Below are positions 6,020-62,961 of a DNA stretch of 64,000 nucleotides, in pieces. The stretch is from Squalus acanthias (Eukaryota). The position numbers were made by a program, and so were the translations under genes. The stretch spans positions 139,006,001 through 139,070,000 of the forward strand of contig CM059431.1 in assembly GCA_030390025.1 (NCBI GenBank), in the 5' to 3' direction. The notes beneath the pieces are model-generated. The model saw only the letters and a list, made by a program, of their open reading frames with translations. It did not search any database and had not been told where the DNA came from. Position 1 is the first letter of the stretch; the number at the start of each line of letters is the position of its first letter.

Positions 6020-6029
6020 TATTCCTTAA

Positions 6030-9007: not shown

Positions 9008-9359
9008 TTTCCTCCCTTGTACAATGTCCGTGAGACTGTTCAGACTGCAATAAATTCCTGTTCCCACTCTGCCCCCTGCCTCCCCTCTCTTTCCTCTGCC
9101 TCTACCCCGCCGCACTGACCTAACCTCTGTTCCCACTCTGCCCCCTGCCTCCCCCTCTCTTTCCTCTGCCTCTACCCTCGCCACACTGACCCGCGCCTGT
9201 GCCCGCTGGACGTCCAACCCCTCGGCCTGTGAGTGTGACCAGTCTTTCCATTGTAAGTTTCCTAGACCGTGCACCCTGCTGTTGTGTGGAGATACATGAA
9301 AAGCATCAACCAGCTGCGTCAGTGGGAGGGATTCTCCTGGGTGAGCAGCACCTGTGGGA

Positions 9360-12900: not shown

Positions 12901-14102
12901 CTCCTTCTACCCCCTTTAGTCTGAGCCCATCTTTTGTCATACTTGGCTTCTGTGAAGCACCTTGCGATGTGTTTCGATGGACAAGTTGGTGTTGCTGTGT
13001 GTTTATTGTACCAGTGTCAGCGTGAGTGACACAGCAGATAACTGAATCTTACAAGATCTCAAACTGGGTTATAAGTTAATGCTGGAGAATAACTTCAACT
13101 ATAGTTTGTAGAAATTTCTGATCTGAGACTGAATCACTTTTACATTTCCCCAGTGGGGAAAGGAAAGGACGCTGACTGAGAGTTTGATTGGACGCACGTG
13201 TGTGGACACACACACAGCGAGACACGCGCACGAGTGGAGAATATTCACTGTAAAACAGCAGGCAAATCTACCACTTGTATATTCATGGCCATTCCTGAGA
13301 TTGATAAAACCTGTGAATATGTTCCACAAATCAATGCTGAGCATCACCTCACTGTTTAAATTTACATGATTCATAACATTATACATTAGTGTTAATATTA
13401 GTGGAATAGCGGTAAATATCCTCACCTCCTACAGTGCTCATTAGTCAGGTGCTGACACCAGGAGAGATATGGTCAATATATTCAAATAGAAGCACCAACC
13501 AGGGCATATCTCCATGTACACACGGACAATGTCACAGCCCATAGAGACCAGAGGAATCACACCTAGCTGTATATTGTATATGGATAGAAATCATATTCGG
13601 AAAGTACTGGATTTTAATATCAAAACTCAAATCAAAATTAATAAATACAAATATGCGAATAAAAAATACAATAGCGCCACATTGTGTAAAACCGAGTGTT
13701 GGATCATTGAATTCATCAATGATCACTCGCTCCATATTTTCCTGCAGAATATTCTCTACCTCCGGAATAAGGCTGGCTTTGGCCTGCACTGTGTGAGTAA
13801 ATCTCACCAATGTGCGAGTCTCGGCCGACGGGAGCCCGTCTGGAACTCGGTTGTGGGGATCAGCGGGACTCACTGGATTTCACTGGGCAGCTGTCTGTGT
13901 CACACCTGATGTGGAGAGTTGATCGTAACACTCGGGAAATGCTCGATCTCGGAGCTAACAGCTGGTGTACTGATGGGGGGGAGAAGGGGCTTGAAATCAT
14001 CTTTAACAAGGCAGCGCTCTCCTTATTTTAATATTTCTATCTAACCCTCCTATTAATATAGTTATTACAGAGCATCATAATCTGGGAACGCCTGTCACCG
14101 CC

Positions 14103-14166
14103 ATGGCTGAAGGTCCAATCAGGGGAGAAGATCCAACATCTTCAACAAGAATGAGAATGGACACAG
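14103..14166 (+). CDS. NLR coding exon 1, upstream copy (1a): [21 protein letters not shown]
   Basis: Acceptor ttacag| before 14071, strong Kozak accgccATGG, donor CAG|gtaaga, phase 1 matching exon 2. Confidence 0.75.
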
Positions 14167-14595
14167 GTAAGAACAACACAATATTATTTACAATATAATT
14201 TCTGTTCTGACAAAGGGTCCAGATCTCGTGCAAGAACCTCCAGCTCACACAGGTCGAGGGAACAGGACAGGGGCTGATTAGAAAGAGGGATGTGAGTGAC
14301 CATCTAGAGAGGCACCGCAGTCACAGGTGGAGGGAGCCCCTGAGGACTGGAACTGTCCAATAGATGGGGACTGTAAGGTGGATGGAGACAGTGACTCAGA
14401 AGATTGTCTTCCTGAGCAATAGTTTGAAGCCAGGGAGCAGTAGGTCACCCCGAGTGAGCCGAGGGTGAGAGGAGAATGATAGAGATATCTGATTCCAGAG
14501 GGAAGAACATCTTTGAATGGCTGTGACCTTTTCTGTGAAGGCAAGAAGAGCAGAAAATTGTCCCGGTCAAAACCAAAAACACAACTAGAAATACA

Positions 14596-16015
14596 TTTAA
14601 AAAATAATTTTCGGGACTTGAGTGTCGCTGGCAAGGCCCCCATTTATTGCCCACACCAAGTTGTCATTGAATAGATGATGGTGGGCCACGTTCTTGAATC
14701 GCTGCAGTCCATGTGGTGAAGGTGCTCCCTCAGTGCTGTTAGGTAGGGAGTTCCAAGGTTTTGATCCAGCGACAATGAAGGAGAGGTGATGTATGTCCAA
14801 GTTAGGGTTGTATGTGACATTAGGAGAACTTGGAAGCGAAGGTGTTCCCACGCACCTGGTGTCCTTGTCCTTCTAGGTGGTGGATGTCGTGGGTGTGAGA
14901 GGTGCTGTCGAAGATGCCTTGCTGACTTACTGGAGAGCATCCAGTAGACAGTAATCTGCAACCACGGTAAGCCAATGGTGGAGGGAGTCCATGTTTAACA
15001 CAATGGATGGGGTGCTGATCAAGCATAATGCTTTGTCCTGGATGGTGTTGAGCATCTTCAGTGTTGTTACAACTTCACTTGTCCAGACAAATGGAAAGTG
15101 TTCCATCACTCTCCTGACGTGTGTTGTAGGTGGGGGAGAGAATTTGGGGAGTCACGAGGTGAGCCACTTGCCACAGAATACCCAGCCTCTGACCTGCTCC
15201 CGTAGACACGGGGGATGTATGTGGCTGGTCCAGTTCTATTTTGTTTGATGTGGGGGACTTGTTGATAATGTCATTGACTGTCATGGCATATGGCTATGGT
15301 ATCTCTGGTTGGAGATGGTCATTGCCTGACCCTGGGAACGGTAGCGTAGTGGTAATGTCACTGGGCTAGTAATCCAGAGGCCTGGACTAATGATTCAGCA
15401 ACGTGAGTTCAAATCCCACCACGGCAGCTGGGGACTTAAATAAATCTGGAATAAAAAGCTAGAATCAGTAATGGTAACCATGAAACTATCGGATTGTCGT
15501 TAAAAACCCATCTGGTTCACTAATGTCCTTTTAGGGAAGGAAATCTGCCGTCCTTACGTGGTCTGGCCTGTATGTGACTACAGACCCACAGCAATGTGGT
15601 TGATCTTAACTGCCCTCTGAAATGGCCTAGCAAGCCACTCAGTTGTAACTAACCGCTACGAAACAAAATACCATCACCACACGGACTGCAGCGGTTCAAG
15701 AAGGCGGCTCACCACCACCTTCTCAAGGGCAACTTGGGATGGGCAATAAATGCTGGCCTTGCCAGCGATGCCCAGATCCCATAAAAGGAATAAAAAAAAC
15801 TTGTCTGGTTCGAATATAATTTGCCACATATCAGGCCAAAACTGGATGTTATCCACGTATTGCTGCAAGCAGGCATGGACTGCTTCATTATTGGGGGAAT
15901 TGTGAATGGGGCCGAACAAACTGCAACCATCAGCGAGCAGCCCCACCTCTAACCTTATGATGGAGCGAAGGTCACTGATGAAGCAGCTGGAAGTAGTTGA
16001 GTCTCGGATGCTGGC
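14596..16015 (-). mobile_element. Degenerate CR1-group LINE 3' portion interrupted by a SINE (copy 1; copy 2 at ~27234..28653)
   Basis: Fragments [36 protein letters not shown] and [12 protein letters not shown]. Confidence 0.75.
15332..15799 (+). mobile_element. tRNA-derived SINE with LINE-derived tail (copy 1; copy 2 at ~27970..28437)
   Basis: A box tagcgtagtgg, B box gagttcaaatccc, 3' end homologous to the host LINE terminus, A-rich end. Confidence 0.88.
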
Positions 16016-16885
16016 CTGGTTTGAGGCCTATATTGAGAGAATTTAAAGTCAGGCAATGGAATGTAAAACAAAGCATCAAGGTGATGGTCTCTGGCTGTAG
16101 GGTGGGGGCGGGGTGGTTAAAATGGAATTAGGTTCAAGGCCAGCTGATAATACAAAAAGTCAGGGTTTATGAAAAGTAAAGCAATAATTCAAGGTTCTAT
16201 CACTGGGGATGAAGGGAGAATCTAATTGTGGAGGATGATGTTTTGAGGAGGTATCAAACATTTCCAATAGTTTCTAAAAATGATGGTGGTGGTGCGAGAA
16301 GGTGGACTAGAGGAGGATGTGGGATCATAGTTGGAGTTAAATGTAGGGAAGGATTTGGAGCTGAAAAAATAGCCAAGATGGGTAAGTGACTGGGCCCAGA
16401 GATAACACACTCCAGGCTGTTAAATCAAATCACAGAGGAGGGAGGACAGACTCTCCACAATTGTTCAATCTGTTTTAGATTTAAACAATACACTGGAGCA
16501 CTGAAGGAGCCCAAGTAACGTCTCTGTTCAACAATGGAGGAGAGAGGATAAACCGGGTAACTAGAACAGTCTACGGCAGTTATGGGCAGAATGCTCGAGT
16601 CCGGAATTTAAGGTTGAATTAGTGAATGTTGAGATACAGGGGATGATCAGGGGAGGCTGGAACCGACTAACTGTAGGCAAGATGTGTTTGACAAATTTGC
16701 ACGCTTTTTTTAAAGAATGGACTATATAGATCGATGGGATGCAGCATCTGCGGTGTATATGTGGTTTAAGAAGGTGTTTGATAATGCGGCTCACAGGAGG
16801 TTTCAGCTGTTTGGTATAAGAGGCAATGTAGCAGCTTGGATATAAAGTGGATAATGAGTTTAATTTTCTCCATTTGTGTTCACAG

Positions 16886-17052
16886 ATCCGAACTCTACAA
16901 TCACTGAGTTCTTGACAGAGTGCAACGATTACCAGCTGTTCCAGTTGACGAAATTCTACCGGGACAGACTGGAACAGGCGATTGAAGGAGGGGTGGATGG
17001 AGTCAGCTCGTTGTTAACATATGAGTGGCATTTCAGTGGACAAGAACATCGG
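16886..17052 (+). CDS. NLR coding exon 2, upstream copy (2a): (D)[55 protein letters not shown]
   Basis: Acceptor ttttctccatttgtgttcacag, donor CGG|gtgagt, 167 nt, phase 1 to 0, open frame. Confidence 0.8.
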
Positions 17053-17644
17053 GTGAGTGGGAGGGACACAGAATGAGTTTGGGTTATTTAAACATCACAG
17101 AAGCAACAGGAAATCAGATCTTAGAATCATAGAATGTTACAGAAGAAAAACAGGCCAACTAGGAAAGAAAGGGTTAAAGCTGTTAATATTTTAAAACAGA
17201 AACAACAACACCAATGTGAAAATACCCACTGGATCCATCAGTCTATGTAAAAAGGACAGGGTAATGGGTACGAAATTATCCTTTGTGGGCTGAAGTCAAA
17301 GGAAACCAAGAATTTTAGCAGGTTCTCTCAAAGAGACAAGAGACAACTAGCCGGAGTTTTAGGGAAGGTCATGAGTTGAATGTCCTACAAAGTATATAAA
17401 GTAAATTGAGGAACTGTGAGATGATTTTAAAAAATCAGCTGCGGGTTAAAGGAAAGATATTTTTATAAAATGTTAAACTAGTGAACAAGTATTGGACCCA
17501 AACAACCTCAAAAAACCTATGGGGAGTGTCGGATCAACCGAATAGAATGATCCCAATTATATTGATTCAGATACCAGCGATAAATCAACTTATTGGTTCT
17601 ATGAAAATCCTCAGGATGTTCAAGCAAATTATCCAGCTACAGTT

Positions 17645-20027
17645 AGTAGAATCACAGGAACTTACAGCACAGAAGGAGGCCACGTCGTGCCTGTGCTGGC
17701 TCTTTGAAAGAGCAGCCGAGCTCAGTCCCACACGCCCACTATTTGTCCGTAACCCTGCAAGTTCCTCATCCACAAGTACCTGTCTAACTCCCTTTAAAAC
17801 TATTGATGGCATCAGCTTACATCACCTTTTCAGGTCGAGCGTTCCAGATCCTGACATCACTCTGAGTGAAAACAATTCTCCTCATCCCCCCTCTAGATCT
17901 TTTGGCAATTAATTTAAATCTATGGCCTCTGGTTATTGACCCGCTCGCCAGACGGAATAGTTTTTTCTCTCTGTCAAAACTTTTTATCATCTTGAAACCC
18001 TCTATTAGGTCACCTGTTAACCTTCTCTGTTCCAAAGAGAACAGTCCTGACTTTCCCGATCTAGTAATAGTACATCCTTTTGTATTCTGTCTCTATTTAT
18101 AAAACTAGGAATCCCGTCTGTTTTTTAACAGCTTTCTCAACTGATTCTGCCAACTTCAAATAATTCTCTACATAAATCCCGAGGTCTCTGTTCCTTCACC
18201 CCCTTTAAAATTGTACAGTTTAGTTTGTATTGTCTCTCCTCATTCTTTCTTCCAAACATAGTCATAGAGAAATACATCACAGAAAGAGGCCCTTCTGCCC
18301 ATCGTGTCCGCGCCGGCCATCAAGCCCTGTCTATTCTAATCCCATTTTCCAGCACTTGGTCCGTAGCCTTGTATGCTATGACGTTTCAAGTGCTCATCTA
18401 AATGCTTCTTGAATGTTGAGGGTTCCTGCCTCTACCACCCTTTCAGGCAGTGACTTCCAGATTCCAAACACCCTCTGGGTGAAAAAGTTTTTCCTCAAAT
18501 CCCCTCTAAACCTCCTGCCCCTTACCTTGAAACTATGCCCCCTGGTTATTGAGCCCTCTACTAAGGGGGAAAAGTTCCTTTCTATCTACCCTATCTATGC
18601 CCCACGTAATTTTGTGCACCTAAATCAGGTCCCTCCTCAGCCTTCTCTGCTCTAAGGAAAACAACCCCAGCCTGACCAGTCTCTCTTCATAGCTGAAACG
18701 CTCCAGCCCAGTAACATCCTGGTGAATCTCCTCTGCACCCTCTCTAATGCAATCACATCCTTCCTATAGCGTGGCGACCAGAACTGCACACAGTATTACA
18801 GCTGTGGCCTATCTAGCGTTTTGTACAGCTCCATCATAACCTCCCTGCTCTTATATTCTATGCCTCGGCTAATGAAGGCATATGCCTTCTTAACCACCTT
18901 ATCTACCTGTCCTGCTGCCTTCAGGGATCTATGTACATGCACACCAAGGCCCCTTTTGATCCTCTGTCCTTCCTAGGGTCCTACCATTCATTGTGTATTC
19001 CCTTGCCTTGTTAGTCCTCCCAAAATGCATCACCTCACACTTTTCAGGGTTAAATTCCATTTGCCACTGTTCTGCTCATCTGACCAACCGTCTATATCGT
19101 CCTGTAGCCTGAGGCTTCCCTCCTCGCTATTTACCACTCTACCAATTTTCATGTCATCTGCGAACTTACTGATCATAGCTCCTACATTCATATCTAAATC
19201 ATTAATGTACACACAAACAGCAAGGGACCCAGCACCGATCCCTGCGTTACACCACTGGACACAGGCTTCCAGTCACAATAACAACATTCGACCATCCCCC
19301 CTCTGCCTCCTGCCACTAAACCAATTTTGGATCCAATGTGCCAAGTTGCCCTGGATCCCATGGGCTCTTACCTTCTTGACCAGTCTGCCATGCGGGACCT
19401 TGTCAAAAACCTTTCTGAAGTCCATGTGGACTACATCAACTGCACTACCCTCATCCACATACCTAGTCACCCTCTCTCAAAAGTCAATCAATTTGGTTAG
19501 ACATGATCTCCCCCTGACAAAGCCATGCTGACTATCCTTGATTAATCCTTGCCTGCCAAGAGAAGACTAATTCTGTCCCTCAGAAATTTTTCCAATAATT
19601 TCCCTACCACTGATGTTAGGCTCACTGGCCTGTAATTCCCTGGTTTATCCCTACTATGCTTCTTGAATAATGGTACTACATTAACTGTCCTCCAGTTCTC
19701 TGGCACCTCCCCTGTGGGCAGAGAGGATCTGAAAATTTGTGTCAGAACCCCTGCAATCTCCTCCCTTGCCTCACACAGCAGCCTGGGATACATCTCGTCT
19801 GGTCCTGGGGATTGATCCACTTTTAAGCCCGCTAAAACCGCTAATACCTCCTCCCCCTCGATGCTAATTTGTTCAAGTATATCACCATCCCCCTGCCTGA
19901 TTTCTATGCTTACATCGTCCTTCTCCATAGTGAACACAGATGCAAAATATTCATTTAAAACCTCACCTACATCTTCTGGCTCTACACACAGATTGCCACT
20001 TTTGTCCCTAATGGGCCCTACTCTTTC
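17645..20027 (-). mobile_element. Two adjacent CR1 LINE fragments (17645..18255 and 18256..20027)
   Basis: RT fragments ([21 protein letters not shown]); the second is the same subfamily as 7140..9007, inverted. Confidence 0.9.
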
Positions 20028-20270
20028 GATAGCAAAATACTGCGGATGCTGGAAATCCGAAATAACAACAGAAAACGCTGGAAAAACTCAGCAGGCCAGG
20101 CAGCATCCGTGGAGAGAGAAACAGAGTTAACGTTTCAGGTCGAAGACCTTTCGTCAGAACTGGAAAAAAGCAGGAAATAAAATCGATTTAACGCTGGGAG
20201 AAGGGGGAGGGGATGAAAGAACAAAAGGAGAGATTAAGAGACACAGAGACGTTAAGAGATAATCATGGCC
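20028..20270 (-). mobile_element. Penelope-like element terminal fragment (also at ~32663..32905)
   Basis: Nearly identical to the start of the GIY-YIG-bearing insertion at 33691. Confidence 0.8.
20125..20161 (-). ncRNA. Minimal type-I hammerhead ribozyme-like motif (also 32760..32796 and 33788..33824)
   Basis: AGUU-CUGACGA-A-AGGUC(UUC)GACCU-GAAAC-GUU-AACU on the - strand. Confidence 0.55.
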
Positions 20271-20274
20271 AGGA

Positions 20275-23035
20275 CAGTGGGGGGCGCGGGGTTGGGTCGG
20301 GGGGGGGCGCGGGGTTGGGTCGGTGGGGGGGCGCAAGGCTGGGTCGGTGGGGGGGCGCGGGGTTGGGTCGGTGGGGGGGCGCGGAGTTGGGTCGGCGCGG
20401 GGTTGGGTCGGTGGGGGGCGCGGGGTTGGGTCGGTGGGGGGCGCGGGGTTGGGTCGGTGGGGGGTGGGCGCGGGGGTTGGGTCGGTGGGGGGTTGGGTCG
20501 CTGGGGGGCGCGGGGGTTGGGTCGCTGGGGGGCGCGGGGTTGGGTCGGTGGGGGGTTGGGTCGGTGGGGGGTGCGGGGTTGGCTCGTTGGGGCGCGGGGT
20601 TGGGTCGTTGGTGGGGCAAGGGGGTGGGGGGTTGGGTCGTTGGGGGGTTGGGTCGGTGGGGGGCGCGGGGTTGGGTCGGTGGGGGGCGCGGGGTTGGGTC
20701 GTTGGGTTGGGTCGGTGGGGGGCGCGGGGTTTGGTCGGTGGGGGGCGCGGGGTTGCGACGGTGGGGGGCGCGGGGTTGGGTCGGTGGGGGGCGCGGGGTT
20801 GGGTCGGTGGGGGGGCGCGGGGTTGGGTCGGTGGGGGGCGCGGGGTTGGGTCGGTGGGGGGCGCGGGGTTGGGTCGGTGGGGGGCGCGGGGTTGGGTCGT
20901 TGGGGGGTTGGGTCGGTGGGGGGCGCGGGGTTGGGTCGGTGGGGGGCGCGGGGTTGGGTCGGTGGGGGGCGCGGGGTTGGGTCGGTGGGGGGCGCGGGGT
21001 TGGGTCGGTGGGTGGCGCGGGGTTGGGTCGGTGGGGGGCGCGGGGTTGGGTCGGTGGGTGGCGCGGGGTTGGGTCGGTGGGGGGGCGCGGGGTTGGGTCG
21101 GTGGGGGGCGCGGGGTTGGGTCGGTTGGGGGTTGGGTCGGTGGGGCGTTGGGTCGGTGGGGGGCGCGGGGTTGGGTCGGTGGGGGGCGCGGGGTTGGGTC
21201 GGTGGGGGGCGCGGGGTTGGGTCGGTGGGGGGCGCGGGGTTGGGTCGGTGGGGGGCGCGGGGTTGGGTCGGCGGGGGGGTGGGCGCGGGGTTGGGTCGGC
21301 GGGGGGGTGGGCGCGGGGTTGGGTCGGCGGGGGGTTGGGTCGGTGGGGGGTTGGGTCGCTGGGGGGCGCCTGAGTCGGGTCGCTGGGGGGCGCGGGGTTG
21401 GGTCGGTGGGGGATTGTGTCGGTGGGGGGCGCGGGGTTGGGTCGGTGGGGGGGCGCGGGGTTGGGTCATTGGGGGGCGCGGGGTTGGGTCGGTGGGGGGT
21501 TGGGTCGGTGGGGGGCGCGGGGTTGGGTCGTGGGGGGGCGCGGGGTTGGGTCGGTGGGGGGGCGCGGGGTTGCCTCTGTGGGGGGCGCGGGGTTGGGTCA
21601 GTGGTTGGTTGGGTCGGTGGGGGGCGCGGGGTTGGGTCATTGAGGGGCGTGGGGTTGGGTCGGTGGGGGGCGCGGGGTTGGGGGGTTGGGTCGTTGGGGG
21701 TTTCGGTCGGTGGGGGGCGCGGGGTTGGGGGGTTGGGTTGGTGGGGGGCGCGGGGTCGGTGGGGGGTTGGGTCGGTGGGGGGCGCGGGGTTGGGTCGGTG
21801 GGGGGCGCGGGGTTGGGTCGGTGGGGGGCGCGGGGTTGGGTCGGTGGGGGGCGCGGGGTTGGGTCGGTGGGGGGCGCGGGGTTGGGTCGGTGGGAGCGGG
21901 GTTGGGTCGGTGGGGGGCGCGGGGTTGGGTCGGTGGGGGGCGCGGGGTTGGGTCGGGGGGGGGCGCGGGGTTGGGTCGGGGGGGGGCGCGGGGTTGGGTC
22001 GGTGGAGGGCGCGGGGTTGGGTCGGTGGGGGGCGCGGGGTTGGGGCGGGGTTGGGTCGGTGGGGGGCGCGGGGTTTGGTCTGTGGGGGGGGGGGCGCGGG
22101 GTTGGGTCGTTGGGGGGGCGCGGGGTTGGGTCGGTGGGGGGCGCGGGGTTGGGTCGGTGGGGGGCGCGGGGTTGGGGCGGGGTTGGGTCGGTGGGGGGCG
22201 CGGGGTTTGGTCTGTGGGGGGGGGCGCGGGGTTGGGTCGTTGGGGGGGCGCGGGGTTGGGTCGGTGGGGGGCGCGGGGTTGGGTCGGTGGGGGGCGCGGG
22301 GTTGGGTCGGTGGGGGGCGCGGGGGTTGGGTCGGTGGGGGGCGAGGGGTTGGGTCGGTGGGGGGCGAGGGGTTGGGTCGGTGGGGGGCGCGGGGTTGGGT
22401 CGGTGGGGGGCGCGGGGTTGGGTCGGTGGGGGGCGAGGGGTTGGGTCGGTGGGGGGCGAGGGGTTTGGGTCGGTGGGGGGGCGAGGGGTTGGGTCGGTGG
22501 GGGGCGGGGGTTTGGGTCGGTGGGGGGCGCGGGGTTAGGTCGGTGGGGGACGCAGGTTTGGTTTGTTGGGGGGGCGCGGGGTTGGGTCGGTGGGGGGGCC
22601 TGAGTCATGGGGGGCGCGGGGTTGGGTCATTGGGGGCCCGGGGCTGGGTCGTTGGGGGGCGCGGGGCTGGGTCGTTGGGGGGCGCGGGGCTGGGTCGTTG
22701 GGGGGCGTGGGGCTGGGTCGGTGGGGGTGGCAGGTCTGTGTCGGTGGGTTGCGGGGGGCTGGGTCAGTGGGGTGCGGGGCTGCATCAGTGTGGTGCGGGG
22801 GGCTGGGACAGTGGGTGTGCGGGGCTGCTTCAGTGGGGTGCGGGGGGCTGGGTCTGTGGGGTGCAGGCCTGCATCAGTGGGGTGCGGGGGGCTGTGACGG
22901 TGGGTTGTGGGGCTGGGCCAGTTTGGTGCGGGCCTGGGACTGTGGGGTGCGGGGTGCTGGGTCAATGTGGGTGTCGGAGCTGGGACCGTGGGTTTTGGGG
23001 CTGAGCCAGTTTGGTGCGTGGCTGGGTCAGTGTGG
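20275..23035. repeat. G-rich minisatellite B: ~2.3 kb of the 23-bp unit GGGGTTGGGTCGGTGGGGGGCGC grading into A-type repeats
   Basis: Visible array with extreme G/C strand skew. Confidence 0.97.
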
Positions 23036-23397
23036 GTGTAGCTGCGACAGCGGGGTGCGAAATCGCTTCAAAGCCCTGCTCACTCAGCATCCGTGTGCTT
23101 GTGAACCTACATTGGCTCCCGGTTCCCCGAGCGTCTCCAATTTACAAGTCCCATTGTTGTTTAAATCCCTTCCTGTCTCTGTAACCTCCTCCAGCACTAC
23201 AATCCCCCACCACCAAGATCTCTCTCTTCCTCCAACTCTGGCCTCTTGTGGCATTTCCCCCTCAACTCCCCCCCATCTATGGAGGCTGTGCCTTCGGCTG
23301 TCCCGGCTCAATGCTCATCAATTCCCCACCCAAACCTCTCCAGCTCCCTCCTCCTTTAGAACCCTATGAAACTCACTGCTGTGACCAACATTCTGAC

Positions 23398-25538: not shown

Positions 25539-26740
25539 CTCCTTCTACCCCCTTTAGTCTGAGCCCATCTTTTGTCATACTTGGCTTCTGTGAAGCACCT
25601 TGCGATGTGTTTCGATGGACAAGTTGGTGTTGCTGTGTGTTTATTGTACCAGTGTCAGCGTGAGTGACACAGCAGATAACTGAATCTTACAAGATCTCAA
25701 ACTGGGTTATAAGTTAATGCTGGAGAATAACTTCAACTATAGTTTGTAGAAATTTCTGATCTGAGACTGAATCACTTTTACATTTCCCCAGTGGGGAAAG
25801 GAAAGGACGCTGACTGAGAGTTTGATTGGACGCACGTGTGTGGACACACACACAGCGAGACACGCGCACGAGTGGAGAATATTCACTGTAAAACAGCAGG
25901 CAAATCTACCACTTGTATATTCATGGCCATTCCTGAGATTGATAAAACCTGTGAATATGTTCCACAAATCAATGCTGAGCATCACCTCACTGTTTAAATT
26001 TACATGATTCATAACATTATACATTAGTGTTAATATTAGTGGAATAGCGGTAAATATCCTCACCTCCTACAGTGCTCATTAGTCAGGTGCTGACACCAGG
26101 AGAGATATGGTCAATATATTCAAATAGAAGCACCAACCAGGGCATATCTCCATGTACACACGGACAATGTCACAGCCCATAGAGACCAGAGGAATCACAC
26201 CTAGCTGTATATTGTATATGGATAGAAATCATATTCGGAAAGTACTGGATTTTAATATCAAAACTCAAATCAAAATTAATAAATACAAATATGCGAATAA
26301 AAAATACAATAGCGCCACATTGTGTAAAACCGAGTGTTGGATCATTGAATTCATCAATGATCACTCGCTCCATATTTTCCTGCAGAATATTCTCTACCTC
26401 AGGAATAAGGCTGGCTTTGGCCTGCACTGTGTGAGTAAATCTCACCAATGTGCGAGTCTCGGCCGACGGGAGCCCGTCTGGAACTCGGTTGTGGGGATCA
26501 GCGGGACTCACTGGATTTCACTGGGCAGCTGTCTGTGTCACACCTGATGTGGAGTGTTGATCGTAACACTCGGGAAATGCTCGATCTCCGAGCTAACAGC
26601 TGGTGTACTGATGGGGGGGAGAAGGGGCTTGAAATCATCTTTAACAAGGCAGCGCTCTCCTTATTTTAATATTTCTATCTAACCCTCCTATTAATATAGT
26701 TATTACAGAGCATCATAATCTGGGAACGCCTGTCACCGCC

Positions 26741-26804
26741 ATGGCTGAAGGTCCAATCGGGGGAGAAGATCCAACATCTTCAACAAGAATGAGAATGAAC
26801 ACAG
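26741..26804 (+). CDS. NLR coding exon 1, downstream copy (1b): [21 protein letters not shown]
   Basis: Duplicate of 14103..14166 at offset 12638; acceptor before 26709, Kozak and donor intact. Confidence 0.8.
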
Positions 26805-29800
26805 GTAAGAACAACACAATATTATTTACAATATAATTTCTGTTCTGACAAAGGGTCCAGATCTCGTGCAAGAACCTCCAGCTCACACAGGTCGAGGGAA
26901 CAGGACAGGGGCTGATTAGAAAGAGGGAAGTGAGTGACCATCTAGAGAGGCATCACAGTCACAGGTGGCGGGAGCCCCTGAGTACTGGAACTGTCCAATA
27001 GATGGGGACTGTAAGGTGGATGGAGACAGTGACTCAGAAGATTGTCTTCCTGAGCAATAGTTTGAAGCCAGGGAGCAGTAGGTCACCCCGAGTGAGCCGA
27101 GGGTGAGAGGAGAATGATAGAGATATCTGATTCCAGAGGGAAGAACATCTTTGAACGGCTGTGACCTTTTCTGTGAAGGCAAGAAGAGCAGAAAATTGTC
27201 CCGGTCAAAACCAAAAACACAACTAGAAATACATTTAAAAAATAATTTTCGGGACTTGAGTGTCGCTGGCAAGGCCCCCATTTATTGCCCACACCAAGTT
27301 GTCATTGAATAGATGATGGTGGGCCACGTTCTTGAATCGCTGCAGTCCATGTGGTGAAGGTGCTCCCTCAGTGCTGTTAGGTAGGGAGTTCCAAGGTTTT
27401 GATCCAGCGACAATGAAGGAGAGGTGATGTATGTCCAAGTTAGGGTTGTATGTGACATTAGGAGAACTTGGAAGCGAAGGTGTTCCCACGCACCTGGTGT
27501 CCTTGTCCTTCTAGGTGGTGGATGTCGTGGGTGTGAGAGGTGCTGTCGAAGATGCCTTGCTGACTTACTGGAGAGCATCCAGTAGACAGTAATCTGCAAC
27601 CACGGTAAGCCAATGGTGGAGGGAGTCAATGTTTAACACAATGGATGGGGTGCTGATCAAGCATAATGCTTTGTCCTGGATGGTGTTGAGCATCTTCAGT
27701 GTTGTTACAACTTCACTTGTCCAGACAAATGGAAAGTGTTCCATCACTCTCCTGACGTGTGTTGTAGGTGGGGGAGAGAATTTGGGGAGTCACGAGGTGA
27801 GCCACTTGCCACAGAATACCCAGCCTCTGACCTGCTCCCGTAGACACGGGGGATGTATGTGGCTGGTCCAGTTCTATTTTGTTTGATGTGGGGGACTTGT
27901 TGATAATGTCATTGACTGTCATGGCATATGGCTATGGTATCTCTGGTTGGAGATGGTCATTGCCTGACCCTGGGAACGGTAGCGTAGTGGTAATGTCACT
28001 GGGCTAGTAATCCAGAGGCCTGGACTAATGATTCAGCAACGTGAGTTCAAATCCCACCACGGCAGCTGGGGACTTAAATAAATCTGGAATAAAAAGCTAG
28101 AATCAGTAATGGTAACCATGAAACTATCGGATTGTCGTTAAAAACCCATCTGGTTCACTAATGTCCTTTTAGGGAAGGAAATCTGCCGTCCTTACCTGGT
28201 CTGGCCTGTATGTGACTACAGACCCACAGCAATGTGGTTGATCTTAACTGCCCTCTGAAATGGCCTAGCAAGCCACTCAGTTGTAACTAACCGCTACGAA
28301 ACAAAATACCATCACCACACGGACTGCAGCGGTTCAAGAAGGCGGCTCACCACCACCTTCTCAAGGGCAACTAGGGATGGGCAATAAATGCTGGCCTTGC
28401 CAGCGATGCCCAGATCCCATAAAAGGAATAAAAAAAACTTGTCTGGTTCGAATATAATTTGCCACATATCAGGCCAAAACTGGATGTTATCCACGTATTG
28501 CTGCAAGCAGGCATGGACTGCTTCATTATTGGGGGAATTGTGAATGGGGCCGAACAAACTGCAACCATCAGCGAGCAGCCCCACCTCTAACCTTATGATG
28601 GAGCGAAGGTCACTGATGAAGCAGCTGGAAGTAGTTGAGTCTCGGATGCTGGCCTGGTTTGAGGCCTATATTGAGAGAATTTAAAGTCAGGCAATGGAAT
28701 GTAAAACAAAGCATCAAGGTGATGGTCTCTGGCTGTAGGGTGGGGGTGGGGTGGTTAAAATGGAATTAGGTTCAAGGCCAGCTGATAATACAAAAAGTCA
28801 GGGTTTATGAAAAGTAAAGCAATAATTCAAGGTTCTATCACTGGGGATGAAGGGAGAATCTAATTGTGGAGGATGATGTTTTGAGGAGGTATCAAACATT
28901 TCCAATAGTTTCTAAAAATGATGGTGGTGGTGCGAGAAGGTGGACTAGAGGAGGATGTGGGATCATAGTTGGAGTTAAATGTAGGGAAGGATTTGGAGCT
29001 GAAAAAATAGCCAAGATGGGTAAGTGACTGGGCCCAGAGATAACACACTCCAGGCTGTTAAATCAAATCACAGAGGAGGGAGGACAGACTCTCCACAATT
29101 GTTCAATCTGTTTTAGATTTAAACAATACACTGGAGCACTGAAGGAGCCCAAGTAACGTCTCTGTTCAACAATGGAGGAGAGAGGATAAACCGGGTAACT
29201 AGAACAGTCTACGGCAGTTATGGGCAGAATGCTCGAGTCCGGAATTTAAGGTTGAATTAGTGAATGTTGAGATACAGGGGATGATCAGGGGAGGCTGGAA
29301 CCGACTAACTGTAGGCAAGATGTGTTTGACAAATTTGCACGCTTTTTTTAAAGAATGGACTATATAGATCGATGGGATGCAGCATCTGCGGTGTATATGT
29401 GGTTTAAGAAGGTGTTTGATAATGCGGCTCACAGGAGGTTTCAGCTGTTTGGTATAAGAGGCAATGTAGCAGCTTGGATATAAAGTGGATAATGAGTTTA
29501 ATTTTCTCCATTTGTGTTCACAGATCCGAACTCTACAATCACTGAGTTCTTGACAGAGTGCAACGATTACCAGCTGTTCCAGTTGACGAAATTCTACCGG
29601 GACAGACTGGAACAGGCGATTGAAGGAGGGGTGGACGGAGTCAGCTCGTTGTTAACATACGAGTGGCATTTCAGTGGACAAGAACATCGGGTGAGTGGGA
29701 GGGACACAGAATGAGTTTGGGTTATTTAAACATCACAGAAGCAACAGGAAATCAGATCTTAGAATCATAGAATGTTACAGAAGAAAAACAGGCCAACTAG

Positions 29801-32800
29801 GAAAGAAAGGGTTAAAGCTGTTAATATTTTAAAACAGAAACAACAACACCAATGTGAAAATACCCACTGGATCCATCAGTCTATGTAAAAAGGACAGGGT
29901 AATGGGTACGAAATTATCCTTTGTGGGCTGAAGTCAAAGGAAACCAAGAATTTTAGCAGGTTCTCTCAAAGAGACAAGAGACAACTAGCCGGAGTTTTAG
30001 GGAAGGTCATGAGTTGAATGTCCTACAAAGTATATAAAGTAAATTGAGGAACTGTGAGATGATTTTAAAAAATCAGCTGCGGGTTAAAGGAAAGATATTT
30101 TTATAAAATGTTAAACTAGTGAACAAGTATTGGACCCAAACAACCTCAAAAAACCTATGGGGAGTGTCGGATCAACCGAATAGAATGATCCCAATTATAT
30201 TGATTCAGATACCAGCGATAAATCAACTTATTGGTTCTATGAAAATCCTCAGGATGTTCAAGCAAATTATCCAGTTACAGTTAGTAGAATCACAGGAACT
30301 TACAGCACAGAAGGAGGCCACGTCGTGCCTGTGCTGGCTCTTTGAAAGAGCAGCCGAGCTCAGTCCCACACCCCCACTATTTGTCCGTAACCCTGCAAGT
30401 TCCTCATCCACAAGTACCTGTCTAACTCCCTTTAAAACTATTGATGGCATCAGCTTACATCACCTTTTCAGGTCGAGCGTTCCAGATCCTGACATCACTC
30501 TGAGTGAAAACAATTCTCCTCATCCCCCCTCTAGATCTTTTGGCAATTAATTTAAATCTATGGCCTCTGGTTATTGACCCGCTCGCCAGACGGAATAGTT
30601 TTTTCTCTCTGTCAAAACTTATCATCTTGAAACCCTCTATTAGGTCACCTGTTAACCTTCTCTGTTCCAAAGAGAACAGTCCTGACTTTCCCGATCTAGT
30701 AATAGTACATCCTTTTGTATTCTGTCTCTATTTATAAAACTAGGAATCCCGTCTGTTTTTTAACAGCTTTCTCAACTGATTCTGCCAACTTCAAATAATT
30801 CTCTACATAAATCCCGAGGTCTCTGTTCCTTCACCCTGTGTAAAATTGTACAGTTTAGTTTGTATTGTCTCTCCTCATTCTTTCTTCCAAACATAGTCAT
30901 AGAGAAATACATCACAGAAAGAGGCCCTTCGGCCCATCGTGTCCGCGCCGGCCATCAAGCCCTGTCTATTCTAATCCCATTTTCCAGCACTTGGTCCGTA
31001 GCCTTGTATGCTATGACGTTTCAAGTGCTCATCTAAATGCTTCTTGAATGTTGAGGGTTCCAGCCTCTACCACCCTTTCAGGCAGTGACTTCCAGATTCC
31101 AAACACCCTCTGGGTGAAAAAGTTTTTCCTCAAATCCCCTCTAAACCTCCTGCCCCTTACCTTGAAACTATGCCCCCTGGTTATTGAGCCCTCTACTAAG
31201 GGGGAAAAGTTCCTTTCTATCTACCCTATCTATGCCCCATGTAATTTTGTGCACCTAAATCAGGTCCCTCCTCAGCCTTCTCTGCTCTAAGGAAAACAAC
31301 CCCAGCCTGTCCAGTCTCTCTTCATAGCTGAAACGCTCCAGCCCAGTAACATCCTGGTGAATCTCCTCTGCACCCTCTCTAATGCAATCACATCCTTCCT
31401 ATAGCGTGGCGACCAGAACTGCACACAGTATTACAGCTGTGGCCTATCTAGCGTTTTGTACAGCTCCATCATAACCTCCCTGCTCTTATATTCTATGCCT
31501 CGGCTAATGAAGGCATATGCCTTCTTAACCACCTTATCTACCTGTCCTGCTGCCTTCAGGGATCTATGTACATGCACACCAAGGCCCCTTTTGATCCTCT
31601 GTCCTTCCTAGGGTCCTACCATTCATTGTGTATTCCCTTGCCTTGTTAGTCCTCCCAAAATGCATCACCTCACACTTTTCAGGGTTAAATTCCATTTGCC
31701 ACTGTTCTGCTCATCTGACCAACCGTCTATATCGTCCTGTAGCCTGAGGCTTCCCTCCTCGCTATTTACCACTCTACCAATTTTCATGTCATCTGCGAAC
31801 TTACTGATCATAGCTCCTACATTCATATCTAAATCATTAATGTACACACAAACAGCAAGGGACCCAGCACCGATCCCTGCGTTACACCACTGGACACAGG
31901 CTTCCAGTCACAATAACAACATTCGACCATCCCCCCTCTGCCTCCTGCCACTAAACCAATTTTGGATCCAATGTGCCAAGTTGCCCTGGATCCCATGGGC
32001 TCTTACCTTCTTGACCAGTCTGCCATGCGGGACCTTGTCAAAAACCTTTCTGAAGTCCATGTGGACTACATCAACTGCACTACCCTCATCCACATACCTA
32101 GTCACCCTCTCTCAAAAGTCAATCAATTTGGTTAGACATGATCTCCCCCTGACAAAGCCATGCTGACTATCCTTGATTAATCCTTGCCTGCCAAGAGAAG
32201 ACTAATTCTGTCCCTCAGAATTTTTTCCAATAATTTCCCTACCACTGATGTTAGGCTCACTGGCCTGTAATTCCCTGGTTTATCCCTACTATGCTTCTTG
32301 AATAATGGTACTACATTAACTGTCCTCCAGTTCTCTGGCACCTCCCCTGTGGGCAGAGAGGATCTGAAAATTTGTGTCGGAACCCCTGCAATCTCCTCCC
32401 TTGCCTCACACAGCAGCCTGAGATACATCTCGTCTGGTCCTGGGGATTGATCCACTTTTAAGCCCGCTAAAACCGCTAATACCTCCTCCCCCTCGATGCT
32501 AATTTGTTCAAGTATATCACCATCCCCCTGCCTGATTTCTATGCTTACATCGTCCTTCTCCATAGTGAACACAGATGCAAAATATTCATTTAAAACCTCA
32601 CCTACATCTTCTGGCTCTACACACAGATTGCCACTTTTGTCCCTAATGGGCCCTACTCTTTCGATAGCAAAATACTGCGGATGCTGGAAATCCGAAATAA
32701 CAACAGAAAACGCTGGAAAAACTCAGCAGGCCAGGCAGCATCCGTGGAGAGAGAAACAGAGTTAACGTTTCAGGTCGAAGACCTTTCGTCAGAACAGGAA

Positions 32801-35800
32801 AAAAGCAGGAAATGAAATCGATTTAAAGCTGGGAGAAGGGGGAGGGGATGAAAGCACAAAAGGAGAGATTAAGAGACACTGAGAGATGTTAAGAGATAAT
32901 CATGGCCAGGTCAGTGGGGGGCGCTGGGTTGGGTCGGTGGGGGGGGGGCGCGGGGTTGGGTCGTTGGGGGGGGCGCGGGGTTGGGTCGGTGGGGGGCGCG
33001 GGGCTGGGTCGGTGGGGGGCGCGGGGCTGGGGCGGTGGGGGGCGCGGGGCTGGGGCGGTGGGGGGCGCGGGGCTGGGGCGGTGGGGGGCGCGGGGCTGGG
33101 GCGGTGGGGGGCGCGGGGCTGGGGCGGTGGGGGGCGCGGGGCTGGGTCGGTGGGGGCGGCAGGCCTGGGTCGGTGGGGTGCGCCGCGGGGGTGCGCCAGT
33201 GGGGTGCGGGGGGCTGTGTCAGTGGGGTGCGGGGCTGCGTCAGTGGGGTGCGGGGGGCTGGGACCTACTACCCTCTGAGTGAAGAAGTTTCTCCTCATCT
33301 CAGTTTTGAAAGAGCAGCCCCTTATTCTAAGATTATGCCCCCTAGTTCTAGTTTCACCCATCCTTGGGAACATCCTTACCGCATCCACCCGATCAAGCCC
33401 CTTCACAATCTTATGTTTCAATAAGATCGCCTCTCACTCTTCTGAACTCCAATGAGTAGAGTCCCAATCTGCTCAACCTCTCCTCATATGTCCACCCCCT
33501 CATCCCGGGGATTAACCTAGTGAACCTTCTTTGTACTGCCTCGAGAGCAAGTATGTCTTTTCTTAAGTATGGACACCAAAACTGTATGCAGTATTCCAGA
33601 TGCGGTTTCACCAATACCTTATATAACTGCAGCATCTTCCGGCTCTACACACAGATTGCCACTTTTGTCCCTAATGGGCCCTACTCTTTCGATAGCAAAA
33701 TACTGCGGATGCTGGAAATCCGAAATAACAACAGAAAACGCTGGAAAAACTCAGCAGGCCAGGCAGCATCCGTGGAGAGAGAAACAGAGTTAACGTTTCA
33801 GGTCGAAGACCTTTCGTCAGAACTGGAAAAAAGCAGGAAATGAAATCGATTTAAAGCTGGGAAAAGGGGGAGGGGATGAAATAACAAAAGGAGAGATTAA
33901 GAGACATTGAGAGACGTTAAGAGATATTCAAGGCCAGAGGAGGTTTTGATGTAACAGGTTGAGGCTAAATGAAGTGTGAAATGCACTGGCAGAATGAAGG
34001 ACAGCTGCCAGCTTCTGGGAGGGAAAAAAAAGGGGGGGGGGGCAAACAAAAGGGTGGATGAAAAAATAAAATATAAATGTGATAGGGGCCGAGGAGATGA
34101 TCTAAAATTGTTGAACTCGATGTTGAGTCCAGAGGGCTGTAGAGTGCCTAAACGAAAGATAAGTTGCTGTTCCTCGAGCTTACGCTGCGCTTCCGTGGAA
34201 CAGTGTAATAGGCCGAGGACGGTGAGGTCAGAGAGGGAGTGGAGCGGAGAATTAAAGTGACAGGCAACCGGGAGCTCGGGGGTCCCCCTTACGGACTGAA
34301 CGGAGGTGTTCAGCAAAGCGGTCACCCAATCTGCGTTTGGTCTCCCCAATGTGGAGGAGACCACATCGTGAGCAGCGAATACTGTATACCAAATTGCAGG
34401 AAGTACAAGTAAATCGCTGTTTCACCTGGAAGGGGCGTTTGGGGCCCTACTCTTTCCCTGGTTATTCTCTTGCCCTTAATATACTTATAAAACACCTTGG
34501 GATTTTCCTTTATTTTGCCCGCCAGTGTTTTTTCATGCCCTCTCTTTGCTCTCCTAATTTCTTTAAGTACCCCCCTGCACTTTCTGTACTCTTCTTGGGC
34601 TTCCACTGTTTTTAGTCCTTCGTATCTGCCAAATGCCTCCCTTTTTTTTCCTAATCCATTCTCGTATATCCCTTGACATCCAGGGTTCCCTGGGCTTGTT
34701 GGTCCAACCCTTGACCTTTACGGGAACATGTTGGCGCTGTACTCTCTCTCTTTCCTTTCTGAATGACTCCCACTGTATCGTGGATTTTCCTACAAGTAGC
34801 TGACCCCAGATCCTGCCTTATCATATTAAAATCGGCCTTCCCCCAATTTAGAATCTTTATTTCCGGTCCATCTTTGTCCTTTTCCATTACTACCTTAAAT
34901 CTCACCGAATTATGGTCACTGTCACTAAAATGCTCTCCTACTGACACTTCTACCACTTGCCCGGCTACATTCCCTAGAATTAGGTCCAGTACCGCCCCCT
35001 CTCTTATAGAACTTTCTACATGCTGGCTCAAAAAACACTCCTGGATACACTTTAAGAATTCCGCCCCCTCTAAGCCTTTCACACTCTGACTATCGCAGTT
35101 AATATTGGGGAAGTTGAAATCCCCTACTACTATTATTATATCAATTCACACTTCTCTGTCATGTGTCTGCCCATTTCACCAGTCTGTCTATGCCCTCCTG
35201 AAGTCTGCTATTATCCTTCTCACTATTTACTACCTTTCTGAGTTTCGCGCAATCTGCAATTCTTTTAAATTATGCTCTGTATCCCCAAGTGCAGGTCATT
35301 AATATATATCAAAGAGCAGTCGTCCTAATACTGTACTGAGCCCTGTGGGACAACACTGTACTCTTTCCTCCAGTCTGAAAAACAGCAGTTTACAACTGCT
35401 CTCTGTTTTCTTTCCCTTTGACAATGTTATATCAACGCTGCCACTGCCCATTTAATCCCATGGGTTTCGAATTTGCTAACATGTCTATTACTTGGTCAAA
35501 CGCCTTTTGAAAGTCCATATACACATCATCAACCGCACGACCCTTGTCAACCGTTAATTCATTAAACAACTCAATCAATTTATTCAACCACGCTATGCCT
35601 TTAATAAATCCATGTTGGCTGCAATTTATTAACCCATGTCTTTTCCAAGGGAATATTTTGTCCTGGATTATTGTGTCTAAAAGTTTCTCCACTATCGAGG
35701 TTAGGCTGACTGGCCTGTTGTTGCTGGGTTCATCCCTCTCCCCTTTTTTGAACAGCGGTGTAACATTTGCAACTCTCCACTCCGCTGGCACCACTCAAGT

Positions 35801-38800
35801 CCAAGGAGTATTGGAAGAATTTGGCTCGAGCCACCTCCGATTAGCTGCAGTTCCTGAGAAGCAGTAAATTTTTTGTCTGCAAATATTAATATCTGGTTCC
35901 GCAAATATTCTGCTGACCAGCATTATTCATCTGGAGGGAAGAACATCATTCACCCATTTCAAACAAACGAGCGAAGTTAGTGTCAAAAGGATAAAGTGGT
36001 AACGAATATTCACTTAAAGTAAGTTAAATACCCTGATCCTGCTGTTGAACAGAATCAGCCTTGAATTCAATAAACTGGCCCAATATGGGGTGACATTGAT
36101 CTTCAGCATTGTGAAATGGGCTCACAGCGAATCAGCGCCCGATTTTCCCTCCTGTTGCAGAGTCAGTGTCAGGCTGAACTCAGCAGCAACAAGCAAAGTA
36201 TCTGTGTTCAAATTGCTGAGGATGGTCGGTGATTTGACACATTGCTCTGAATTTAGTGAGAGATATTTGAAATAAAGCAGCGCACAGTTGTGCCAGAGAC
36301 AGGTGTGGGAGGGGGAGTATTGTGAGAGTGCACGGAACCGAAAGCAGGCTCTGTTCCCGGTGGGAAACCAACACCACCTTGTTTTCCTCCTCCTGCTCCA
36401 CCCAGACAGTCCTCTCGCCCAAGTGCTGTAAGAGGACAATCTGCCCCAGTTCATTTTCACTGCAGGCCCTTCACTCCGCTCATCAATATATTCATTATTA
36501 TTCTCTACAGAAAGTCACTGAGCTCGTGGAGAAGGGAAACCGGGCGGACAGTTCCAAACTTCTCCTAAATCTGGTGATGGAGAAAGGCTCTGGGGCCCGA
36601 AGGACAATGTGGAAATCCTTTGTGAAAATGCGCCATGGGGTACCAAAGCTGGACAAAATACTGAAAGAAATACAGGAACTTGGTACGGTAAAATCACACA
36701 CTGAATTCAATTTCACATCTAAAATTACATATTTTACTAAAGTAGTGCACGGATTTGTTTTCATGAAAGCTAATTTATTTAAACAGGTTTCTTTCGATTT
36801 AATGACATGAAAGCCACAGAATGTTTATCCGAAGTTCCCAGTCAGCTGAAAGGTAGGTGATGGGCTGAAGATTTCAAACAGATTATTTCGGTTCTGATTA
36901 TCAGAGGCTTTAACTTTGACCATTGGTTTCGAGATGTCTAGAATCTGGGGGTGAAAAGTTCAAGAGCTGGGCAAACAGAATTCAACTTCATTTTCACTTC
37001 TCACTGATTCTGAAATATATCTTTGAAATGTGTGGGATAAAGTTACCATTAACACCAGGTTTGGGATTATCTTTAAATATTCATTGCAAACTGCCGGCGC
37101 GACATCGGCCGTCTCGATTTTCTCTGCTCCCCTCACTCTATCCTGCCTCCCTTTGAACTTGTAGCACTCCATTCTCTCAGATCCAACTCCAGCATTCTCA
37201 TTAAACCTGCAGACAAGTGTGGTGCTGTTATTGTTTGGCGAGCCGACCTCTACCTAGCAGAAGCGGAAGTTGAACGCCAACTCTCCGACATCTCCTCCTA
37301 CCTCCGCCTGGACCATGACCCCACCACCGAACATCAAGCCATCGTTTCCAAGACTGTCACTGACATCATCTCCTCTAGAGATCTTCCCTCCACGGCCGCC
37401 AACCTTATAGTTCCCCAACCCTGCATGGCTGCTCCATCCCCCACCAGGATGGCCTGAGGGCGCTCTGCTTCTTCCTTGAACAAAGGCCCAACCAGTCCCC
37501 GTCCACCACCACCCTCCTCCGCCTGGCTGAACTTGTTCTCACATTGAACAACTTCTTCTTTGACTCCACTAACTTCCTCCAAATCAAAGCTGTTTCTTTG
37601 GAAACCCACATGGGTCCTAGCTATGCCTGCCTTTTTGTGGGATATAAGAACATAAGAACATAAGAAATAGGAGCAGGAGTAGGCCAATCGGCCCCTCGAG
37701 CCTGCTCCGCCATTCAATAAGATCATGGCTGATCTGATCCTAACCGCCAATCTACTATCTATCACAGAACCATCTCCTGCATCTAACAGAATTGCACACA
37801 CGAAATAGGAGCAGAATCAGGCTACACAGTCCCTGGGCCCGCTCCACCACCCACAGGGCCATGACCGATCCGAACCTAGACTCATGTCCAAATTCCTGCC
37901 CGCTCCCCGTAACCCTTAATGCCCTTTACTTCTAGGAAACTGTCTATTTCTGTTTTAAATTTAATTAATGTTGTAGCTTCTACAGCTTTTTGTGGCAGCA
38001 TATTCCATGGACCTACCACCCTCTGAGTGAAGTAGTTCCTCCTCATCTCAGTTTTGAAAGAGCAGCCCCTTATTCTAAGACTATGTCCCCTAGTTCTCGT
38101 CTCACCCGTCATCGGGAACATCCTCCCCGCATCCACCCGATCCAACCCCTTCACAATCTTATATGTTTCAATAAGATCGCCTCTCATTCTTCTGAACTCC
38201 AATGAGTAGAGTCCCAATCTACCCAACCTCTCCTCATATGACCACCCCCTCATCCCTGGGATTTAACCGAGTGAACCTTTTAATGGTGAACATTAACGAG
38301 TGAACATTCTTTGTTCCAGGCCTACTCTGGTCCCCTCCCTCTCCTCTTTTTCCAGTACACTGATGACTGTATCGGTGCCGTTTCCTGCTCTCTCCCTGAA
38401 CTACAAATTTTCGTTCACTTTGCTTCCAATTTCCACAGTTCCCTCACCTTCACATGATCCATCTCCGACTCTTCCCTTCCTATCCTCAGCTTCTCTACTG
38501 CATTTCTGGGGATAGGCTCTTGACAAACAATCACTATAAGCCCACTGACTCCCACAGCTACCTGGACTGCACTTCCTGCCAACCCGCTTCCTGTAACGAC
38601 TCTATTCCTTTCTCCCAGTTTCTCTGCATCCACCGCATCTGCTCTGACGATGCCACCTTCCACACTAGTGTTTCTGACATGTCTTCCTTTTTCCTAACTG
38701 AGGATTCCCCTCTACCGTGGTTGACACGGCCCTTGACCGTGCCTGTTCTGTTTCCCGCACCTCTACTCTCACCCCTACCTCTCCCTCCCGGAACCACAAT

Positions 38801-60987: not shown

Positions 60988-61035
<48 letters not shown>

Positions 61036-62928: not shown

Positions 62929-62961
<33 letters not shown>

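Follow-up and report, generated by a model that had tools for sequence, protein, structure and literature searches.

Several known gene families place repeated 5' coding exons in front of a shared 3' body. In UGT1 and Gcnt2, a distinct promoter precedes each variable exon (PMC1885805), while a model for the birth of mutually exclusive exons invokes one upstream pairing arm facing a duplicated complementary arm (PMC6071210). Among immune receptors, fish NLR repertoires are reported to undergo high birth and death with copy-number variation, zebrafish NLRs differing in copy number between individuals (10.1101/2023.08.23.554498), and zebrafish NLRs show repeated N-terminal peptides, exon shuffling and gene conversion (10.1101/022061). 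According to a whale-shark study, the NLRP-related family is enlarged in cartilaginous fish (PMC8455134). Here we examine a stretch of 64,000 nucleotides of Squalus acanthias (hereafter the window; contig CM059431.1, positions 139,006,001 to 139,070,000, forward strand), part of a 160-Mb contig in a 3.71-Gb assembly (GCA_030390025.1). It holds an NLR gene whose exons 1 and 2 are each present twice, as cassettes a and b, in front of one CARD-NACHT-LRR body. We consider that this locus is probably a young, near-neutral intragenic tandem duplication in one member of a several-hundred-gene shark CARD-NACHT-LRR family. Its exons are arranged as follows.

14071-14166, forward strand: exon 1a, 96 nt, symmetric, with 32 nt before ATG 14103 (gccATGg) and a splice acceptor in front
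16886-17052, forward strand: exon 2a, 167 nt, encoding the first CARD half
26709-26804, forward strand: exon 1b, with ATG 26741, differing from 1a by R7G and D20N and carrying TGA 26790-26792 in the 2a-1b frame
29524-29690, forward strand: exon 2b, with two silent differences from 2a
36511-36682, forward strand: exon 3, single copy, encoding the second CARD half
36787-36852, forward strand: exon 4, a 66-nt linker
49894-51631, forward strand: exon 5, NACHT, winged helix and HD2
56290-56376, 56516-56686, 56827-56994 and 57167 to the stop codon at 57254, forward strand: exons 6-9, leucine-rich repeats, in frame

The gene structure proposed in an earlier note on this DNA holds: exons 1 and 2 occur twice with intact Kozak context and with GT and AG sites identical between a and b, and exons 3-9 are single copy, completing an open CARD-NACHT-LRR frame of 906 amino acids. 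Exon 1a is identical to the paralog L003 over 150 bases, and exon 5 matches the Pfam families PF05729 (E 8e-37), PF17779 and PF17776, all above the cut-off. In a self-comparison, positions 10969-20599 recur at 23607-33255 with an offset of 12,638, defining a unit of 12.64 kb. The two units are 98.8% identical over 9,657 aligned bases when repeats are included, far beyond chance, and differ by 30 substitutions in 9,179 bases (0.33%) once minisatellites are left out.

The combinations 1a-2a-3, 1a-2b-3 and 1b-2b-3 are all open and 1a-2a-1b runs into the TGA at 26790-26792 after 104 amino acids, as first described; the frameshift at 2a-2b ends 1a-2a-2b after 86. The cassettes are not frame-exclusive, contrary to the earlier note. 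Exon 1 measures 96 nt, and 1a-1b-2b-3 stays open through the 32 nt that had been labelled untranslated region (UTR), gaining 32 amino acids and requiring the skipping of exon 2a only. Premature stops thus arise at the 2a-1b and 2a-2b junctions and none at 1a-1b, and exclusive use of the cassettes, judged by phase, is not forced, because 1a-1b-2b-3 is viable by frame. The duplicated exons are tandem, homologous and equal in length and phase; the intron between 2a and 1b spans 9.66 kb and all sites are GT-AG, leaving no steric or spliceosomal incompatibility that would keep the cassettes apart. A second AG lying 2 nt inside exon 1, a weak GAG site, would put 2a-1b in frame, and three paralog loci (L011-L013) have lost the CAG and retain only this inner AG.

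At the protein level, R7G and D20N in the leader peptide are all that separates the two cassettes; the CARD half is unchanged. The four exonic differences offered as diagnostic do exist and are only half diagnostic. In a comparison with 24 non-redundant paralog loci out of 30 retrieved, the 1a alleles equal the paralog state in 23 of 23 informative loci and hence are not private, and private status belongs to both 1b changes (found in 0 of 23 paralog loci) and to the TAT in 2a (0 of 21). Six private changes fall in a and seven in b.

What lies upstream of the unit bears on how the cassettes would be transcribed.

6001-6500, forward strand: CpG-island region, putative promoter, GC 0.61, CpG observed/expected 0.95, single copy, outside the duplicated unit
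6380-6516, forward strand: putative non-coding leader exon, ending GGTGCGG before the donor GTGAGT, with three upstream ATGs

The promoter function of 6001-6500 is suggested by its composition, and a CpG island occupies the same place in the single-unit paralog L031. Within it we find what we take to be a CRE (6102), an E-box (6174), CCAAT boxes (6242 and 6278) and NRF1-like (6041), ETS (6385) and YY1-like (6424) sites. The 19-base motif spanning the leader donor occurs exactly at 28 genomic sites, once in the window and there outside the unit; among the matches listed (100 of the 180 for exon 1), an exon 1 follows on the same strand within 50 kb at 20 of the 28 sites and precedes at none of them. 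Exon 1 itself is directly preceded by TTATTACAG, a pyrimidine/AT tract followed by a CAG acceptor that is conserved in most of 28 loci. With a splice acceptor in front and a leader donor upstream in the single CpG island, exon 1 can, by its sequence, no longer be regarded as the first exon. Of the 106 homolog models that match exon 1, translation includes part of the supposed UTR in 25, and about 20 homolog models, counted by eye, extend upstream of the exon 1 acceptor. Both counts hint, weakly, at an internal exon 1; some of these models may contain intron read-through. The CRE, NRF1, ETS and YY1 patterns are absent from 23060-26708, and neither the motif search nor the leader search found a promoter of cassette b's own in the window.

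The putative leader also carries upstream ATGs at 6427, 6476 and 6508. The last has a strong context; after splicing of the leader to exon 1 it would open a frame of 30 codons, overlapping the main ATG in another phase and stopping at the same TGA as the 2a-1b read-through. This ATG is part of the 19-base motif found unchanged at 28 sites, and so may dampen translation throughout the family. Elsewhere in the genome, the CpG-island and leader-donor region is present in two to four tandem copies upstream of single NLR genes.

C29:1084985-1106807, C29:1346509-1351266, C29:1763600-1767168 and C823:228928-252954: tandem leader regions

These could be alternative promoters with non-coding first exons, a possible arrangement that would come nearer to a multi-promoter design than the locus in the window does.

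The ends of the duplicated unit and its internal junction are all marked by minisatellites.

10052-10461, forward strand: array 1, with a GC-rich unit of 21-23 bp, at the left end of the duplicated unit
20277-23059, forward strand: array 2, 2.8 kb, at the junction, delimited by Tandem Repeats Finder and 8-mer typing
32909-33262, forward strand: array 3, at the right end of the unit, its last repeats resembling array 1
23000-23399, forward strand: 5' flank of unit b, with 24 mismatches to unit a in 397 bases (6%)

The paralog L031, located 2.7 Mb away and 98.4% identical, retains a single unit in the order leader, array 1, exon 1, exon 2, array 3, exon 3. When array 2 is typed by 8-mers against the two arrays of this paralog, it is of array-3 type up to about 22,600 and of array-1 type after about 22,700, a graded hybrid around eight times as long as array 3. 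Such a hybrid is the expected outcome of unequal exchange. The array has 80% GC, a CpG observed/expected ratio of 1.3-1.4 and six GC-box-like matches. In the 5' flank, unit a has only 4 mismatches in 529 bases to L031, and the interior differences between a and b come in patches, each shared with single paralogs. The flank of unit b, judging by these comparisons, calls for either another template or a subsequent gene conversion; no donor above 94% identity was found among the best 40 of 2,536 candidates. Near this border, an 8-base microsatellite ATCCCTTG (23519-23629) has about 14 copies in unit b versus about three in unit a. At the other end, a 305-base direct repeat (32605-32909 and 33633-33937) brackets array 3 together with a fragment of a long interspersed nuclear element (LINE); the arrangement, shared with the paralog, looks as if array and fragment had entered the intron-2 LINE together with a local duplication.

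From these elements a simple history can be proposed. The minisatellites of the leader intron and of intron 2 would have recombined unequally, doubling the 12.64 kb between them, which held exons 1 and 2. The single CpG-island promoter would now yield one pre-mRNA, leader-1a-2a-1b-2b-3 and onward to exon 9. Because its splice sites all reproduce strong constitutive ones, a large fraction of the transcripts would be expected to include all four exons, to stop at 26790 with many junctions downstream, and to be lost to nonsense-mediated decay (NMD). The earlier note had suggested, as its alternative, that read-through transcripts are sent to NMD and attenuate the receptor; as a by-product of the duplication this would fit the sequence, whereas attenuation as a selected function finds no support. 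Transcripts could survive as leader-1b-2b-3, aided by pairing between LINE arms that flank cassette a, as leader-1a-1b-2b-3, with one exon skipped and 32 leader residues added, and less often as 1a-2a-3 and 1a-2b-3. Every surviving form would carry the same single CARD on the same body, so that the locus would supply less of an ordinary receptor and no novel specificity. The likely fate of the locus would be collapse of the duplication or decay of the upstream exon 2.

That the two halves encoded by exons 2 and 3 belong to one domain is indicated by structure prediction. In a model of the homolog P0140 (27-row alignment), residues 31-130 reach a predicted local distance difference test score (pLDDT) of about 89-98, and the leader peptide stays below 50. 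Nine of the top ten Foldseek rows are CARD-titled with probabilities of 0.96-1.00, although the best E is only 0.12; Atlas CARD clusters at 0.88 for the N-terminal fold provide a lead only, and Pfam found no CARD in the three homologs searched. Exon 2 spans residues 22-77 of a fold that ends at about 116-134 in the homolog model. Exons 2 and 3 jointly are thus predicted to form a CARD-like fold, not a PYD, and the name half-CARD that exon 2 had been given is a fair one. A peptide ending midway in a six-helix CARD would be unlikely to fold.

The locus belongs to a crowded family. Exon motifs match the genome 233 times for exon 2, 278 for exon 3 and 180 for exon 1, with 0 for the control, which suggests about 230-280 members. 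The NACHT exon shows 84-92% identity to the 120 shark proteins listed as matches, almost all of which bear the name "NACHT, LRR and PYD domains-containing protein 3-like" or "12-like", and by similarity, without a tree, we take the gene to belong to the elasmobranch NLRP-related family. In a survey of paralog layouts on contigs C7 and C29, only 1 of 58 exact exon-2 matches has a same-strand neighbour without an exon 3 in between, and it is the locus in the window. At least four other kinds of N-terminal duplication, with different breakpoints, do occur. At C29:18.97 Mb, exon 1, recognised by its donor motif, is present twice, 1,064 bases apart (C29:18970123 and 18971187), downstream of a decayed exon-2 copy. 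At C737:1-14200 (L033), exons 1-4 are followed by exons 1-3 onward, and the upstream copy has several one-base indels that may reflect decay or sequencing error. At C1175:765900-785700 (L035 and L036), exons 3-4 lie between two copies of exon 2, in a module of 405 nt that is phase-compatible and whose duplication would give tandem CARDs; with exons 3 and 4 between its exon-2 copies, we rejected it as a second duplication of exons 1 and 2. An old exon-2 copy, 71% identical and frameshifted, recurs at 13 loci, 7 of which have an exon 1 2-17 kb downstream among the matches listed; the window has no such decayed copy. Examples of decayed copies lie at L006:154-344, L007:219-354, L026:243-426 and L027:448-631. 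In L006, L026 and L027 the acceptor and donor look intact, and the old copy may have become a non-coding exon.

Among 259 retrieved proteins, a set that contains isoforms and some chance hits (one of them, the bacterial repeat protein P0233, was dropped), nine have exon 1 in tandem, six repeat the exon 2-3 module, and none has the order 1-2-1-2. The nine, from Mustelus asterias and Scyliorhinus canicula and including several isoforms, contain exon 1 two to four times in frame. At least 10 of the 259 (P0007, P0008, P0052, P0053 and P0068 among them) start at MEKGS inside exon 3, without most of the CARD, and may be skipped isoforms or incomplete annotations. Phase-compatible duplications thus appear to be read through in gene models, and the order found in the window has no annotated counterpart among the 259. 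We found no published account of N-terminal exon duplication in shark NLRs within a partial coverage of the literature.

Several observations weigh against a young near-neutral duplication. The 0.33% divergence between a and b lies within the range of two alleles and is compatible with an assembly error. The 6% divergence of the unit b 5' flank does not fit a single clean crossover. At L034, the 5.2 kb upstream of the decayed exon-2 copy contain no exon-1 remnant, so that the 13 loci are not proven to reflect the same kind of event. The paralog survey, moreover, covers 100 listed matches out of 233, 278 and 180, respectively, and the best 40 for DNA queries. Finally, the locus contains an inverted LINE pair, which is what a genuine mutually exclusive system would need.

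The first of these points leads to an assembly artefact, in which two haplotypes of one unit were joined head to tail within a GC-rich minisatellite. We hold this to be unlikely, although it would account for the low divergence, for the near-even split of private changes (six in a, seven in b) and for a junction lying inside a 2.8-kb repeat of 80% GC; near-identical locus pairs on small contigs (L011/L012/L013 at 99.6-99.9%, L019/L020 at 99.1%) are further points in its favour. The window, however, has no gap (no N), the array at the junction grades from one type into the other and exceeds array 3 about eightfold in length, and the family has independent N-terminal duplications elsewhere. The 5' flank would also be odd for an allele, since there unit b differs from a by 6%, while a separate paralog differs from a by less than 1%.

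The last point calls for a description of the LINE arms.

7228-9010, forward strand: arm U, in the leader intron, single copy, with reverse-transcriptase-like open reading frames
18254-20027, reverse strand: arm A, within the 2a-1b intron
30889-32662, reverse strand: arm B, within the 2b-3 intron

Arm U, which we take to be a fragment of a CR1-type LINE, is reverse-complementary to both A and B, at 93.4% over 1,790 bases. A 200-nt piece gives predicted duplex energies of -331 and -335 kcal/mol, compared with -115 to -155 for five control pieces. Arm U lies 9.2 kb from A and 21.9 kb from B. Pairing of U with A would drop cassette a and leave a normal protein (leader-1b-2b-3); pairing of U with B would drop both cassettes (leader-3). 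This raises the alternative, again unlikely in our judgement, of nascent exclusive two-exon cassettes controlled by RNA structure and NMD. With a single upstream arm and a complementary partner behind each of the cassettes, the locus reproduces the layout of the published birth model (PMC6071210), and exon skipping by loop-out between inverted Alu pairs has been described (PMC13019027). A CARD-less leader-3 product could start at MEKGS in exon 3, as some models do, although those models may be incomplete annotations. Yet the arms are transposon copies older than the duplication, the inverted pair being present in the single-unit paralog, and their distances exceed the 5-kb windows in which inverted Alu pairs, assigned to single exons, had small effects overall (PMC13019027). 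Neither pairing selects cassette a, so that the arms would offer a rescue route by skipping and not a two-way choice between variants, and the two products would be nearly the same protein. In its boldest version, which we also find improbable, the locus would be exclusive splicing being born without any new mutation: the duplicated LINE arm would provide two competing selectors for one docking arm and, together with NMD, would switch between a CARD receptor (leader-1b-2b-3) and a CARD-less form (leader-3), releasing circles of exons 1 and 2. If such transposon-made switches were at work across the family, they could influence which of the shark NLRs bear a signalling domain. Were the RNA-structure reading to hold, the locus would offer a direct test of the model that duplication of a stem-loop arm creates exclusive splicing.

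The LINE pair also complicates the use of transcript data. Back-splicing, at this locus or in paralogs with the LINE pair, can also join exon 2 to exon 1; because this yields the same junction, reads across it cannot prove read-through. Within the intron between exons 1 and 2, there is in addition a 99-base inverted repeat of 83-84% identity (14625-14723 with 15670-15768, and 27263-27361 with 28308-28406). After the duplication, copies from different units could also pair with each other, placing 2a and 1b in the loop.

Selected attenuation, with the duplication kept for a lower dose through NMD or through an inhibitory half-CARD peptide of 104 amino acids, is quite improbable. The all-exon frame does end after 104 amino acids with at least seven junctions downstream, and both copies and the body are intact; but intactness is expected at 0.33% divergence, the peptide would end between CARD helices and would come from an NMD target, and with hundreds of near-identical paralogs one locus would shift the total dose little. 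A promoter for each cassette, that of b perhaps being the expanded and CpG-rich minisatellite at the junction, is very improbable: the composition and GC-box-like matches of array 2 and the tandem leader regions of some paralogs speak for it, but exon 1b is marked by an acceptor instead of a start region, the window holds a single motif cluster and a single leader donor, 3.6 kb separate the end of array 2 from 1b, and the supposedly variable parts are invariant.

We therefore return to the young, near-neutral duplication. Most probably read in this way, the locus matters little in itself, being one of many structural variants in an immune gene family with rapid turnover. It does illustrate how the number of N-terminal exons changes in shark NLRs, through units bounded by minisatellites in which phase decides whether a duplication is read through. 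Two further features lie outside these questions: the acceptor of the NACHT exon (49882-49893) is a purine-rich TTGAAG after a short pyrimidine tract, closing a 13-kb intron, and a separate tandem repeat of about 1.9-kb units with 80-84% identity lies beyond the stop codon (58616-64000).

Compared with the systems described at the outset, the locus resembles UGT1 and the protocadherins in having repeated 5' coding exons before a shared 3' body, here exons 3-9. It differs from them in that, by sequence, one CpG island, one motif cluster and one leader donor lie upstream of both units, in that its cassettes are internal and made of two small exons instead of one large first exon, and in the lack of diversification, with two leader residues changed and none in the CARD half. 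A nascent design of this kind with obligatory exclusive use, as the earlier note envisaged, does not agree with one promoter, near-identical cassettes and an in-frame 1a-1b product. At most, the locus would work like duplicated exons policed by NMD.

With the elasmobranch NLRP-related NLRs it shares the order of leader peptide, CARD, linker, NACHT and LRR, and it departs from them in its doubled exons 1-2 and in an N-terminal domain that is CARD-like by fold. Also close to it are gene models in which exon 1 is repeated by internal N-terminal tandem duplication (XP_078059742.1 and XP_038656758.1) and models of the same family with repeated CARD modules (XP_072894802.1, XP_059818528.1 and XP_072894424.1). 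These are phase-compatible and, as modelled, read through, whereas the unit in the window splits the CARD and breaks the frame at 2a-1b. Zebrafish NLR-B30.2 (NLR-C) genes likewise form a large family in tandem, in which duplication, gene conversion and exon shuffling have been at work and N-terminal peptides of about 30 amino acids are repeated (10.1101/022061), but they belong to another lineage with another domain set, and the model in the window ends in LRRs, without B30.2. Dscam-type exclusive exons share with it tandem duplication, a premature stop upon double inclusion and one arm facing a duplicated downstream arm (PMC6071210). They differ in that the duplicated unit here has two exons, the arms are long transposon copies instead of short conserved elements, the copies bring no sequence diversity, and one double-inclusion product is in frame.

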